Shown: positions 17,721-54,563, counted from the first letter of the stretch. The stretch: DNA of 64,000 nt from Enterobacter phage vB_ECC_MY742 (PV593737.1); one strand, 5' to 3'. Notes: generated by a model from the sequence alone, not told the origin. Made by a program: numbers and translations.

Positions 17721-17758
17721 AGGAGGACATTATACCCTGTCCTCATGGGTTGTAAATT
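17721..17758 (-). promoter_or_regulatory. PeSL-type early promoter: -35 ATTTACA, hairpin GAGGACAGGGTATAATGTCCTC carrying the -10 TATAAT
   Basis: A sigma70-like -35/-10 with 17-nt spacing. The -10 sits in the loop of a perfect 6-bp inverted repeat. Confidence 0.55.
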
Positions 17759-18053
17759 ATGAGATTCGCATTGCATCACGAATCAGATTAATAACCATAT
17801 CGGCTGTATAGAAATCAATTTTAATACCAATATCGCTAAAGCGTTTACGAATGTCCATACGGTTTGTAATAGACTCATTGCGTCTAATCAACGAAACACG
17901 AGGGCCATTAGCAAATTCTGCCACATAGCTTGTTTCAGTTTCGTCAACAGGCCATAACGTAATAAAAACAACTTGCTTTTCGTTATAAATGAAACGAAGA
18001 ATTGTTTTAGCATTTTTCAATTCTAATTTTGGCGCATTACGGTCGAGTCTCAT
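17757..18053 (-). CDS. Hypothetical 98-aa protein
   Basis: ORF. Confidence 0.45.
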   Translation of the reverse strand: MRLDRNAPKLELKNAKTILRFIYNEKQVVFITLWPVDETETSYVAEFANGPRVSLIRRNESITNRMDIRKRFSDIGIKIDFYTADMVINLIRDAMRIS

Positions 18054-18313
18054 TAGATAAGCTCCATCATAATATGACGGGTGATTTGCTCAACTTCAAA
18101 CGTTAAAGCATGCGGGTCAAGAGCAAACAGGCAGTTAGCAATACGTTGTGGGTTTAGTTTAGCCTGCTGAACATAGCATTCAGTGCGACAACTTAATGCG
18201 CGGAAAATGATTTCTATATCACCAATTTCAACAATAAGCTTATGATTCCCGTGGCTATTACGAACAAGGAATTCCATTGTAACTGATTTTGTTTTAGATT
18301 TAAGAATAGTCAT
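18053..18313 (-). CDS. Hypothetical 86-aa protein
   Basis: ORF with a GGAG RBS, downstream of a PeSL. Confidence 0.5.
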   Translation of the reverse strand: MTILKSKTKSVTMEFLVRNSHGNHKLIVEIGDIEIIFRALSCRTECYVQQAKLNPQRIANCLFALDPHALTFEVEQITRHIMMELI

Positions 18314-18322
18314 TTGTGTATC

Positions 18323-18365
18323 TCCATTTGTTGGTGTAGGAACATACTAACACGAACAAATGGAG
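18323..18365 (-). promoter_or_regulatory. PeSL-type early promoter (GTTTACA, 17 nt, TTAGTAT, then GTTCCTACAC)
   Basis: A recurrent motif family (see findings). Confidence 0.55.
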
Positions 18366-18375
18366 TTGTAAACAC

Positions 18376-18717
18376 CTAATCTTCTATGATGTCAGGGTCA
18401 AAGCCCTTTTCGAGGAGGAGTTGTTTGAAGAAACGGATATTGTGAACGAGCTTGTCGTCTACAAATATCACAGGATAGCGTATATTGAGAGTAGGGAACC
18501 CTGCACGCTTAGCTAATGAAACAATAAGAGGTCTGTCGTAAGTGAACCCTACGCCGTCCTGAGATGGCGAGAGCACATCATAAAACGAAAATGGAAGACC
18601 TAAGCCTTCCAAAATCTTACGAACATGAATACAACCGGGACAGCGGCTTACTGTCTCTGGAATTCCGTAGACCTCAATCTTTAGTGATTGGTTTTCCACG
18701 TGTAATACCACCTTCAT
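18376..18717 (-). CDS. Glutaredoxin/NrdH-like redoxin (CPGC active site)
   Basis: The product has KIEVYGIPETVSRCPGCIHVRKILEGLGLPFSFYDV. The ORF-track start (18780) gives a hydrophobic 21-aa extension and overlaps the upstream ORF, so an internal Met was chosen. Confidence 0.5.
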   Translation of the reverse strand: MKVVLHVENQSLKIEVYGIPETVSRCPGCIHVRKILEGLGLPFSFYDVLSPSQDGVGFTYDRPLIVSLAKRAGFPTLNIRYPVIFVDDKLVHNIRFFKQLLLEKGFDPDIIED

Positions 18718-18982
18718 ATGACCAGCTATGAATATCCATATATTCACCTTCAGCATTTTCTTTCCAGAGACTAATTTCAATCAAGAAACCAGTATCAGCA
18801 AATTGGAAATAAACTGAAGGTAGAACACCATGAAGCTCTTGAAGAACATGAATAGATTTCAAATCTTCTTCAGCCCCAACGAAGAAATCTGGGTTCAGTG
18901 TACAACCGCCAAACTGGTAGCCATCACCAAGGTCGTCCCATTCTTTCCAATCGATTATTACAAATTCTTCAAAACGTTTCAT
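18674..18982 (-). CDS. Hypothetical 102-aa protein
   Basis: ORF. It overlaps the next gene by 44-107 nt depending on that gene's start. Confidence 0.4.
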   Translation of the reverse strand: MKRFEEFVIIDWKEWDDLGDGYQFGGCTLNPDFFVGAEEDLKSIHVLQELHGVLPSVYFQFADTGFLIEISLWKENAEGEYMDIHSWSYEGGITRGKPITKD

Positions 18983-19194
18983 TTGTCAGCCTTTTTCATA
19001 GCTTCTGCTTTAGCTTCAACCTTAGCGATAGCTTTATCGATAGAAGCTTTGAAGTCAAATTTTTCGCCATCTATTTTAGGGTCAATATAATGAATCAGCA
19101 CGACAACAATAACAACAGGAATCATAGCAACCATTGCATATGCCATCAGAATAACAAACAGAATTACAACCAGATATTTACGGAACTGAGTCAT
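18979..19194 (-). CDS. Small membrane protein (71 aa, one transmembrane helix)
   Basis: The hydrophobic core is VVILFVILMAYAMVAMIPVVIVVVLI. Confidence 0.5.
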   Translation of the reverse strand: MTQFRKYLVVILFVILMAYAMVAMIPVVIVVVLIHYIDPKIDGEKFDFKASIDKAIAKVEAKAEAMKKADK

Positions 19195-19309
19195 TAGCCC
19201 ACCATTTTAGTTAGAGAATCAATAAGAAGCATTGTGTGTAATGCAGGGAATTCTTCACCCATTTTCATAATGAGTTCATATGCATCACAGAGTTGAGTAT
19301 TCAGCCAAT

Positions 19310-52894: not shown

Positions 52895-53176
52895 ATTAAT
52901 ATATGTGTGTTGAATACGTTTAAGCTTCAGCTTATTTTCAAAGATATCATATTCACGAACTTGTTTACCATCTTCAGAAACAAAGAAGGAAAGGTTCACA
53001 CTGTTGAATTCCCAACTGATATCTTTAAGGCGAACATCAGTAGAACTACGACCGATATCAACACGTTCTACTTCATACAAGTGCTCAGCACCATTCTGTT
53101 CGATATGGCGTTTTGAAGCTTCTTGGTCAGGCAGATAACCATTTTCTGGCTTAGTAATTTGAGCAAACAATTTCAT
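52880..53176 (-). CDS. Hypothetical 98-aa protein
   Basis: ORF. Confidence 0.45.
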   Translation of the reverse strand: MKLFAQITKPENGYLPDQEASKRHIEQNGAEHLYEVERVDIGRSSTDVRLKDISWEFNSVNLSFFVSEDGKQVREYDIFENKLKLKRIQHTYINMLLK

Positions 53177-53562
53177 TAGCAGTTACCTTCTGCGACAATA
53201 ACATGAGTTTTAGCATTAACAATCTGCCACCATTGGAAGCGACCGCTGCCATAACGAGCCTTGTCTTCGTTGGCCGCAATAATATCACGCAGTTCATCTT
53301 CAGTCGCCGCTTTTGCTATAAGGTCTTCATATCCACCACGTGGATAGTAGTTCTCACCAGCAAACAACAGGAAGTTAGGCACAATAGCCTTAAACTCTTC
53401 CAGAGTGATTACAGTTCCACCTGGTTGCATAATTTCAACATAACTATAAGGGCAATTCTGAGCTACGTCTACAGCCTGCAGAAGTGTATCGTACGCAAAG
53501 CCTATTTGATTATCTTTATCCTTAGAAGGATTTGCCGAATAGTCACCAAATACTTTATACAT
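53176..53562 (-). CDS. Hypothetical 128-aa protein
   Basis: ORF. Confidence 0.5.
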   Translation of the reverse strand: MYKVFGDYSANPSKDKDNQIGFAYDTLLQAVDVAQNCPYSYVEIMQPGGTVITLEEFKAIVPNFLLFAGENYYPRGGYEDLIAKAATEDELRDIIAANEDKARYGSGRFQWWQIVNAKTHVIVAEGNC

Positions 53563-53797
53563 GTGCCACCTCTACGGTCATAGTACGTTTGCAGACAACA
53601 TAGTCTTCACGGTTTAGCCCTTCAAAGTCAAGTTCTTTCAAAGCATCTTCAACAGCGCCAAAACCTAATGCTTCAGTCAGACCAGTTAGATACCACCCAC
53701 CATATTCAAAATCATTATTATACGCACAGAAAGAACCGAATTCTTTGTGCTTAATTACATAATCAAAAGTTTCCATATTTTCCTCACAGGTCGTCAC
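53555..53797 (-). CDS. Hypothetical 80-aa protein
   Basis: ORF. Confidence 0.45.
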   Translation of the reverse strand: MTTCEENMETFDYVIKHKEFGSFCAYNNDFEYGGWYLTGLTEALGFGAVEDALKELDFEGLNREDYVVCKRTMTVEVAHV

Positions 53798-53975
53798 AAT
53801 CGCCGCTATAAATGGTCGTAAAAGATGAATCCATTACTTCATAACGGTCATAACAACCAGAAGTACCATTTTCTCTGGCATACTCTAAAGCTTGTTCTGG
53901 TGAGCTAAAGGTGTCGATAAGGTCTCGAGACCCGCCACCAGGATAATAACGAGACCACATAAACAGTGCGTACAT
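53784..53975 (-). CDS. Hypothetical 63-aa protein
   Basis: ORF. Confidence 0.4.
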   Translation of the reverse strand: MYALFMWSRYYPGGGSRDLIDTFSSPEQALEYARENGTSGCYDRYEVMDSSFTTIYSGDCDDL

Positions 53976-53982
53976 ATTTTCC

Positions 53983-54174
53983 TCACTTTGCGATGTTGTG
54001 CATCAGAGCTGCAATACCGCCTACTACAGCACACACCGCCAGAGAAACCATGTTCTCAGTGGTAGTCAGCAGACCAGTCAAGAATCCGGCAAACATACTG
54101 AAAGAGAAAGCGGTTACTGCTACTAAGGCGGCTACATTACGGATTGCTTCTGCACGTTTCATTTTATTCTCCAA
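53983..54174 (-). CDS. Small membrane protein (63 aa, two transmembrane helices)
   Basis: Hydrophobic segments are VAALVAVTAFSFSMFAGFLTGLL and AVCAVVGGIAAL. Confidence 0.45.
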   Translation of the reverse strand: MENKMKRAEAIRNVAALVAVTAFSFSMFAGFLTGLLTTTENMVSLAVCAVVGGIAALMHNIAK

Positions 54175-54230
54175 TCACTCATTTGTTTTGATAGGGCTAT
54201 AGTATCATCACTAGAGCCCGTTGTAAACAT

Positions 54231-54503
54231 TTATTTTAGATAAATTGCGTATTTTTTATAACCAGCCTTCTCGTGGCGCAGCCCTTTTTCATTAGCAAAG
54301 CGTTCAATATTATTAATTTGGTTCTGGTCGAGTTCTGAAATATCAAATACAAAAAAGTTTCGCTTATTGCCTAAAGTTACATGATTAGTCAAATCAATAC
54401 TATAGAGATAATTTATATTATCAATCATAGTCTTAACAGATTTGCTAATTTTTACATCTTCATTAAGAATAGATTCAGCGATAAATTCCTGATAAGTTTT
54501 CAT
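54231..54503 (-). CDS. Internal-protein-like capsid-targeted protein (90 aa), CTS MKTYQEFIAE, at the ipI position next to 57B
   Basis: The ATG at 54503 (AAGGGA RBS) gives the exact CTS. The track start 20 codons upstream lies within the promoter. Confidence 0.65.
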   Translation of the reverse strand: MKTYQEFIAESILNEDVKISKSVKTMIDNINYLYSIDLTNHVTLGNKRNFFVFDISELDQNQINNIERFANEKGLRHEKAGYKKYAIYLK

Positions 54504-54523
54504 TTTTGTTCCCTTAAGTTGAT

Positions 54524-54563
54524 ATGAGAGTATAGTAACACGGGTATTTATGGATGTAAACAC
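54524..54563 (-). promoter_or_regulatory. Early promoter (AGTGTTTACA, 17 nt, TTACTAT) upstream of the ipI-like gene
   Basis: The same family. Confidence 0.5.

Follow-up and report, generated by a model that had tools for sequence, protein, structure and literature searches.

We analyzed a 64,000-nucleotide (nt) stretch of the genome of Enterobacter phage vB_ECC_MY742 (PV593737.1), hereafter the window, and found on its minus strand 19 copies of a short intergenic element that joins a putative early promoter to a gene junction carrying one RNA hairpin. We consider it likely that these elements are compact junction modules of the promoter-early stem-loop (PeSL) class in a T4-like phage, with hairpins that would insulate gene cassettes and conserved sequence boxes that would aid cassette exchange.

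In the module that we propose, a strong early promoter for the host sigma70 RNA polymerase, with a (T/A)GTTTACA box, a 17-base-pair (bp) spacer and TGn-TAnnAT, would be squeezed in after the stop codon of one small early gene and ahead of the Shine–Dalgarno (SD) sequence and ATG of the next. An upstream gene ending 34–47 nt before the −35 box would leave room for a separate terminator-like hairpin, often UUCG-looped; a stop codon abutting the −35 box would instead go with a built-in hairpin, its 5' arm in the spacer, the −10 box in or beside the loop, and its 3' arm around the start site or reaching the SD. The embedded hairpin may insulate the cassette from read-through by two routes: it may mark or protect the 3' end of the upstream message, or attenuate that message, and at regB, denV and the open reading frame (ORF) starting at 18313 it may bury the SD, so that translation would proceed only from the own-promoter transcript. 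The conserved −35, −10 and SD boxes, repeated at 19 sites and in other phage genera, could provide short homologies for the gain, loss and swapping of cassettes.

A recurrent putative promoter element at gene junctions

The motif GTTTACA-N17-TAnnnT has 17 exact matches in the window, all on the minus (coding) strand, against 0.25 ± 0.5 expected from shuffled sequences, and RGTGTTTACA has 8 matches against 0.32 expected. A looser scan raised the total to 19 by adding 28755 and 17758 (the latter with ATTTACA), in which the spacer is 16 nt. Their consensus is Aa..Ag.tGTTTACAac....t..gg.CgTGtTA..ATg.tCcTACA. Most copies have TG before the −10 box (an extended −10, TGn), which together with GTTTAC is the signature of T4-type early promoters, and a motif nnYCnTAYA is common around the expected start site. 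By this consensus, the elements are predicted to be T4-type early promoters of the sigma70 type, active in the early period. A generic sigma70 scan confined the specific signal to the TTTACA/17/TG subset.

All 19 copies are intergenic. The stop codon of the upstream ORF lies 0–4 nt before the −35 box in 14 copies and 34–47 nt before it in the other five, and an ATG with a good SD follows 24–55 nt past the −10 box. These results uphold two points of a preliminary description of the element, namely its recurrence on the minus strand (17 of 17 exact matches) and its placement upstream of ORF starts with good ribosome-binding sites. That description had listed 17 copies, 16 of them with correct coordinates; the one it called weaker, at 34395, is doubtful, and three good copies were overlooked, at 54229, 20408 and 4472, with −35 boxes at 54227, 20406 and 4470. 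Its finer sequence claims required revision. The −35 box is not always preceded by (A/G)GTG, (T/A)G being found upstream instead; the literal pattern GTTTACA-N17-TTANNAT has no match, as 17 nt is the hexamer-to-hexamer distance; and GTTCCTACAC, said to follow the element frequently, occurs as an exact string only twice, the looser nnYCnTAYA being the common form.

The window derives from a Kanagawavirus-type phage. Its closest relative is Enterobacter phage Entb_45 (95.6% identity over 27–34 kilobases, kb), followed by other Kanagawavirus phages, PEi20 being approximately 82% identical to the window. Genes run on the minus strand up to approximately 58 kb. The region from 4.5 to 17 kb contains gene 43, regA and genes 62, 44, 45, 46, 47 and 55, and that from 17 to 55 kb contains small genes, mostly of unassigned function, together with two transfer RNA (tRNA) clusters. 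Eighteen of the 19 copies lie within 17.7–54.6 kb, in the kind of hyperplastic region upstream of ORFans that is typical of PeSLs; the majority of the ORFs downstream of them have no Pfam family or only a domain of unknown function. The remaining copy adjoins gene 43 (DNA polymerase). The claim that the conserved block 4472..14027 is free of the element thus stands for its interior, with one copy, 4472, at its very edge, directly after the DNA polymerase gene.

PeSLs have been defined as a sigma70-type early promoter plus a stem-loop between an upstream stop and the SD/ATG (Arbiol 2010, PMC2839356; Comeau 2014, PMC4122927). The identification of the present elements as PeSL-like agrees with this definition in promoter, stem-loop, position and hyperplastic location. 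With the PeSLs of RB49 and phi1 (PMC2839356) they have in common the joining of promoter and stem-loop, a stem-loop that mostly lies between the boxes or covers the −10, stems containing G-T pairs, a concentration in hyperplastic regions, where they precede ORFans, with a copy next to gene 43 as well, and an association with insertions and deletions (indels), the crossovers falling either at the −10 or in the stretch from there to the SD. They differ in that the −35 box is GTTTACA rather than TTGACA, the −10 is degenerate (TAnnAT/TATAGT) with TGn, the stems are not polyG/polyC, and an AT-rich upstream region is lacking; moreover, terminator activity (phi1) and mini-circles (RB49 and phi1) have been reported for those elements, whereas promoter, terminator and mini-circle activity of the window elements would be predictions from sequence. 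The PeSLs of PST/T4 and nt-1/KVP40 (PMC4122927) share the T4/PST consensus TTTACW-N17-TAYWAT, the hyperplastic location and the presence of degraded 'half' copies, and middle-promoter versions such as those of nt-1 (PmSL) seem to be present in the window too. The PST/T4 stem-loops are, however, described just upstream of the promoter, whereas 14 of the 19 here are embedded, so the window combines a T4/PST-type promoter with an RB49/phi1-type stem position. T4 early promoters (Hinton 2010, PMC2988021) likewise have GTTTAC, a 17-bp spacer, TGn and conserved positions around the start site; in the window, unlike in T4, there is no AT-rich UP element, and the end of the preceding gene fills the stretch that lies upstream of the −35 box. 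Save for the AT-rich upstream region, the elements fit the structural definition of PeSLs, a known class, here in a Kanagawavirus-type phage, a genus for which we found no description of such elements in the literature searched. What the window adds, relative to the PeSL accounts as available, is the presence of one hairpin per junction, predicted read-through-only hairpins with SD burial, and the sharing of variants across genera.

One copy-specific hairpin at each junction

Each junction carries one hairpin, embedded in the promoter where the upstream stop abuts the −35 box and separate and upstream where there is room. The five copies with a distant stop (54562, 49225, 33017, 28755 and 20408) each have a separate strong hairpin in the gap, and the same five have the weakest embedded stems; the adjacent-stop copies have an embedded stem in 14 of 14 cases and no strong upstream hairpin. 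The probability of so clean a split by chance is approximately 1 in 11,628 (19 choose 5). Minimum-free-energy (MFE) pairs spanning the −10 failed to separate the two junction classes, and the folding energies separated them. The separate hairpins have UUCG loops in three of five cases and T-rich tails at 54562 and 49225, and the one at 54596..54577 has the GC-rich stem followed directly by a U-run that characterizes an intrinsic terminator. Seven relatives (Entb_45, IME523, Kosakonia 305, CIP9, ZX14, Q7622 and PEi20) follow this rule, with few exceptions. At junction 54229, IME523 has another upstream gene, which comes with a terminator hairpin of its own; the embedded stem is missing there, and the crossover is at the −10. 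We did not find this rule in the available parts of PMC2839356 or PMC4122927.

The copies, each named here by the higher coordinate of its span, and their separate hairpins are as follows.

54504..54562, minus strand: PeSL copy, −35 at 54560..54555, −10 at 54537..54532, ATG at 54503; embedded stem absent
54577..54596, minus strand: separate upstream hairpin of the 54562 junction, GAGGAACC-TTCG-GGTTCCTT, then a T-run
54163..54229, minus strand: PeSL copy, previously overlooked; embedded stem GGGCTCTAGT/ACTATAGCCC across the −10 (54204..54199)
49165..49225, minus strand: PeSL copy; embedded stem absent
49239..49264, minus strand: separate upstream terminator-like hairpin, AAGCCCTAGAAA..TTTCTAGGGCTT, then TTTGG
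47828..47887, minus strand: PeSL copy; embedded stem GTCTGTAGGA/TCCTACAGAC
47513..47598, minus strand: PeSL copy; embedded stem GTGTAGGAG/CTCCTACAC
44666..44720, minus strand: PeSL copy; 12-bp embedded stem ACGGGTGTCTTA/TAAGATACCCGT with one G:U pair; T-rich tail
43872..43936, minus strand: PeSL copy; embedded stem TAGGGTCA/TGACCTTA with one G:U pair
42454..42509, minus strand: PeSL copy; embedded stem GAGGACAT/ATGTCCTC
39968..40028, minus strand: PeSL of denV; 11-bp stem ATCTCCGTTTG/CAAACGGAGAT, promoter spacer with SD
37183..37240, minus strand: PeSL of regB; 13-bp stem ATCTCCTTTTAGT/ACTAAAAGGAGAT, promoter spacer with SD
34380..34425, minus strand: the 'weak' element at 34395, at best a degraded copy; TTTTAC, over-long spacer (~19 nt), 7-bp stem TCGAATA/TATTCGA touching the SD
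32955..33017, minus strand: PeSL copy; weak embedded stem only
33037..33054, minus strand: separate upstream hairpin, AGGGACC-TTCG-GGTCCCT
31761..31820, minus strand: PeSL copy; embedded stem TGTAGGA/TCCTACA
28685..28755, minus strand: PeSL copy, 16-nt spacer; embedded stem absent
28779..28796, minus strand: separate upstream hairpin, AAGGGCC-TTCG-GGCCCTT
27645..27702, minus strand: PeSL copy; embedded stem GATAGGAAGGC/GTCTTCCTATC, with a compensatory A-T to G-C change in ZX14 and Q7622
25885..25942, minus strand: PeSL copy; 13-bp embedded stem with two G:U pairs, stable on the sense strand only
20340..20408, minus strand: PeSL copy, previously overlooked; weak embedded stem
20420..20439, minus strand: separate upstream hairpin, CTCGATGG-GAAA-CTGTCGAG
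18314..18374, minus strand: PeSL copy; 11-bp stem CTCCATTTGTT/AACAAATGGAG, SD included
17679..17758, minus strand: PeSL copy, ATTTACA, 16-nt spacer, TATAAT; embedded stem GAGGACA/TGTCCTC
4416..4472, minus strand: PeSL copy, previously overlooked, directly 3' of the DNA polymerase gene; embedded stem GTGTTAGGC/GCCTAACAC, then TTTTT

RNAfold predicted a stem of −12 kcal/mol or lower enclosing the −10 in 14 of the 19 copies, in agreement with the earlier remark that the −10 often lies inside an inverted repeat. The stems measure 7–16 bp, not the 6–8 bp first given, and the hairpin offered as the example at 42474..42495 actually occupies 42473..42494, one base away. As a swap control, 5' and 3' halves taken from different copies were joined in all combinations. 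Halves of the same copy folded with a mean of −14.15 kcal/mol and permuted pairs with −8.68 ± 0.65, the observed value being reached in 0 of 10,000 permutations; the complementarity of the arms is thus copy-specific and not a by-product of the consensus. A chance origin of the stems in conserved promoter sequence, through GTGTAGGA in the spacer and TCCTACAC at the start site, would accord with the sharing of these arms among several copies and with TCCTACA, which is kept even in copies without a complementary spacer. Besides the swap control, the arm sequences are diverse (GAGGACAT, GATAGGAAGGC, TAGGGTCA, ACGGGTGTCTTA, GTGTTAGGC, GGGCTCTAGT, ATCTCCTTTTAGT and others), with at least eight of them unrelated, and compensatory changes occur in relatives (GATAGG/CCTATC to GGTAGG/CCTACC in ZX14 and Q7622), all of which makes a chance origin extremely improbable.

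The stems also resemble RNA structures. Mean fold energy was −14.15 on the sense strand and −12.75 on the antisense strand, and pairs inside the helices include 28 G:U against 9 A:C, a count in which orthologues are included and independent events are correspondingly fewer. The sense-strand stability, the G:U excess and the compensatory changes together point to a sense-strand RNA structure. An action of the inverted repeats in DNA, as cruciforms or as sites for dimeric phage proteins that control the promoter or start recombination, would suit palindromes centered on the −10, and Arbiol et al. (PMC2839356) speculated on a stem-loop-binding recombination protein. We regard it as improbable: the arms vary among copies and so offer no common operator, G:U pairs leave several stems stable on the sense strand only (copy 25942, −17.9 sense versus −10.6 antisense), and stems that reach the SD make sense in RNA only.

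Two further candidates were rejected, a mobile element resembling a miniature inverted-repeat transposable element (the repeat is internal, with no terminal inverted repeats or target duplications) and an operator for a common repressor (the arm sequences vary among copies). An Rfam scan of the window returned tRNAs only and assigned the stems to no family.

The stem-loops might instead be ordinary intrinsic terminators of the upstream gene, overlapping the promoter only because the genome is compact. This was the reading of the original PeSL paper, in which the stem-loop of one phi1 PeSL cut lacZ expression as strongly as rrnB T1 (PMC2839356), and the complementary distribution of embedded stems and true upstream terminator hairpins suggests an equivalent role. 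In addition, TTTTT follows the 4472 stem, and the 44720 stem was flagged as terminator-like. However, a GC-rich stem directly followed by a U-run is not a general feature of the embedded stems: only two or three of 14 have a T-rich tail, so classical termination is unlikely for most of them, and the terminator scan flagged a single embedded stem (44711..44684) and none in 17–37 kb. Tails were counted from core helices and not from MFE helix ends, where the count misleads because the MFE structure pairs the T-run itself. Furthermore, the 5' arm begins 8–12 nt past the upstream stop, where a terminating ribosome would be expected to cover it, and the regB and denV stems end in the SD and have A-rich tails. 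We therefore hold the terminator reading to be rather unlikely and consider termination by most embedded stems doubtful; protection of a 3' end, or attenuation, is possible.

Predicted burial of Shine–Dalgarno sequences at regB and denV

The 5' arm of the embedded hairpin lies upstream of the putative start site of the module's own promoter, so the hairpin would form only in read-through RNA. Three copies, those of regB (Pfam REGB_T4, 1e-72), denV (Pyr_excise, 9e-14) and the ORF starting at 18313, have the SD itself as their 3' arm. The predicted probability that the SD is unpaired was 0.01 in read-through RNA versus 0.61 in the own transcript for regB, and 0.08 versus 0.54 for denV. At denV, the same pairing is achieved through three different arm sequences in the window, Entb_45 and PEi20, and T4 denV has the same device (TCTCCTGTAG/CTACAGGAGA).

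We then compared regB leaders from 15 phages besides the window, PEi20 (from its whole region) and 14 more. In ten phages from at least nine genera, the window counted, the regB SD is paired with the spacer of the gene's early promoter: T4, moha (Mosigvirus), IME08 (Dhakavirus), CBH8 (Winklervirus), Melville (Gelderlandvirus), Mexia, AS6 (Karamvirus), Ursula, PEi20 and the window. Of the cells in the ten outer pairs of the helix, 96.8% are paired; shuffles reach 73.5 ± 3.1% (0 of 500), and sliding the partner gives 58–66%. Changes on both sides occur at nine of the ten pairs. The covariation count was limited to the ten outer pairs in register, as MAFFT re-gapped the N-padded alignment; RNAalifold on the MAFFT alignment of these leaders returned no pairs because the arms are not in register there. 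The pairing is absent in Muldoon and Aeromonas phage 31, in which regB is preceded by a terminator of its own; in a Krischvirus, which has no promoter directly upstream of regB; in Marfa, where the stem spans the −10 only; and in VR26, where the SD and ATG pair with the −10 region instead. The regB helix is old, and it is conserved with covariation across the ten phages, T4 included.

A related arrangement is known at T4 e, soc, 49 and I-TevI, where a late promoter lies inside a hairpin and the SD pairs with a strand upstream of the proximal start (Uzan and Miller 2010, PMC3014915). At regB, denV and the 18313 ORF the SD likewise lies in a helix whose 5' strand is upstream of the putative proximal start, and the window elements would share the outcome of silent long transcripts and translated proximal-promoter transcripts, which in the window is predicted. 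They differ in that the proximal promoter is early (GTTTACA-N17-TAnnAT) and not late (gp55, TATAAATA); gating would accordingly set own promoter against read-through within the early period, not early against late. The leader helix of regB and denV is unmentioned in PMC3014915 and PMC2988021, the two papers compared.

RegB requires single-stranded GGAG (PMC1702504), and a buried SD would therefore be shielded from it. We tentatively read the promoter-embedded hairpin as an old, conserved translational insulator and PeSLs as exchangeable regulatory cassettes that cross genera, a joint reading that we hold to be slightly more apt to fail than to stand. If it is true, regB and denV transcripts begun upstream would be untranslatable, with their GGAG shielded, and active messenger RNA would come only from the genes' own early promoters.

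In T4 (AF158101), a 14-bp stem CTCCTAGAATTGTG/CACAATTCTAGGAG encloses the −10 of the ipII early promoter (locus ~3020–3100), so embedded stems also occur in T4 at the internal-protein locus.

Exchange of elements, neighboring features and significance

Breakpoints taken from BLAST chains against six relatives formed 75 clusters, 12 of which fall inside PeSL spans that make up 3% of the sequence (binomial p = 2.6e-6). Counted by junction, a breakpoint is present at 12 of 18 PeSL junctions and at 32 of the remaining 92 (Fisher p = 0.017; odds ratio, 3.75). Within PeSLs, breakpoints lie at the upstream edge of the −35, in the SD–ATG region or at the −10. The suggestion that such elements act as recombination hotspots is thus borne out as an enrichment of approximately three- to fourfold, but not as an exclusive role: most events lie at non-PeSL junctions, many of them at tightly packed gene junctions flanked by SD/ATG overlaps of 13–34 nt, and PeSLs are therefore favored exchange sites and not the sole ones.

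Individual cases indicate that the elements can themselves be exchanged. One chimeric PeSL crossed over at the −10. Around junction 43936, the genes on both sides are approximately 95% conserved, yet the stretch running from just past the −35 as far as the SD gives way to a different PeSL type in Kosakonia 305 and PEi20. The 47887 copy is approximately 90% identical to its paralogue at 31820 and to copies in Klebsiella Marfavirus phages, where the variant matches at ~90% over 61 nt amid unrelated genes; within a 3-kb neighborhood in phage F48, no other similarity is detectable. The DNA polymerase genes of the window and such a Marfavirus phage are approximately 71% identical. Nearly the same PeSL stands upstream of denV in T4 and Entb_45 and of regB in IME08.

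These cases, together with the mini-circles from PeSL–PeSL crossover shown in RB49 and phi1 (PMC2839356), argue against the view that the elements are T4-type early promoters of the ordinary kind, situated next to RNA hairpins and with no special part in recombination, the indel link coming from newly acquired cassettes that bring their own promoter. That view accords with the approximately 60 of 75 breakpoint clusters outside PeSLs, with the 52 of 75 located no more than 25 nt from where a gene starts or stops, PeSL or not, and with the loss of enrichment in a narrow window around the ATG (6 of 18 versus 28 of 92). We judge it unlikely, though it retains appreciable weight, and part of the breakpoint association may indeed come from cassettes bringing their own promoter.

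Beyond the clusters outside PeSLs and the narrow-window result, several points weigh against the explanation of the elements as insulated, exchangeable PeSL modules. Own-promoter cassettes would yield the same breakpoint association without hotspot activity. Promoter strength, early timing and the start site are all predictions from the consensus; an AT-rich UP-like region is lacking (AT content is 63% over the upstream 30 nt and 60% in the genome), and specifically the A/T-rich UP element found at −40 to −60 of T4-type early promoters is missing. Promoter-like totals in the generic sigma70 scan were not enriched (61 versus 53 ± 6 and 65 versus 53 ± 7). SD burial is clear in only two or three of the 19 copies, and T-rich tails are as rare as noted above. 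The G:U counts and the relatives' counts overstate the sample size because orthologous copies are not independent, and the register of the regB alignment was set by hand, somewhat favoring the structure.

IME523 and Kosakonia 305 lack a 359-nt segment (47889–48247) that carries a 115-amino-acid ORF without a Pfam family. Its insertion point lies exactly between the stop codon of the upstream gene and the −35 of the 47887 PeSL, where there is TAAG(G) microhomology. Five of six relatives lack a 641-nt insertion at 21195–21835, which a 28-nt overlap flanks. Its ORF, of approximately 214 amino acids with a borderline NUMOD3 motif (20.3 bits versus a cutoff of 20.4), is probably a free-standing homing endonuclease adjoining the thioredoxin gene.

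Stems enclosing a −10 also occur on other promoter types on the minus strand, at 24395–24480, 3091–3150 and 15684–15750. The MotA-box-like middle promoter of the 24394 ORF has CGCTTTAG..TATAAT inside GAAAGGGCTATG/CATGGTCCTTTC, that of the 3090 ORF has TTGCTTCA..TACAAT with TGGTACA/TGTACCA, and upstream of gene 55 a TATAAT is enclosed by AGGTCC/GGACCT; these resemble the PmSL elements of nt-1. Intergenic C(UUCG)G-tetraloop hairpins without a GTTTACA promoter lie at 46895–46914, ~14180–14200, ~9395–9415 and ~7215–7235 (for example AGAGGGC-TTCG-GCCCTCT), with TATAAT-like boxes or a TGCT MotA-like box after some of them. At 33981–34002, upstream of the 33949 ORF, a perfect 9-bp palindromic hairpin, TTAGGGTAC/GTACCCTAA, precedes TAATAAATA, which is one mismatch from the T4 late promoter TATAAATA. 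Upstream of the 49895 ORF (49920–49990, minus strand), a −35 GGTTTACC and a −10 TATGAT stand approximately 25 nt apart, and the hairpin TGGACG-GTG-CGTCCA between them gives the region the look of a promoter spacer with an inserted hairpin.

The two tRNA clusters lie at 50415–51125 (Met, His, Gln, Asn and Lys) and 52422–52673 (Arg, Met and Leu). A ninth tRNA-like match at 51134–51218 was returned by Rfam only, and relatives annotate a tRNA-Tyr or a pseudo-tRNA there.

The points added to the known PeSL class raise its interest only moderately on present evidence. The elements provide a map of putative early transcription units and corrected gene starts in a poorly annotated genus whose phages are used against Enterobacter. 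The one-hairpin rule and the predicted burial of ribosome-binding sites at regB and denV suggest how tightly packed early cassettes stay independent of read-through from their neighbors. The occurrence of PeSL variants across genera in unrelated contexts supports the idea that short regulatory linkers help to shuffle accessory genes among T4-like phages, a process that would matter for the evolution of host range and for designing engineered phages.

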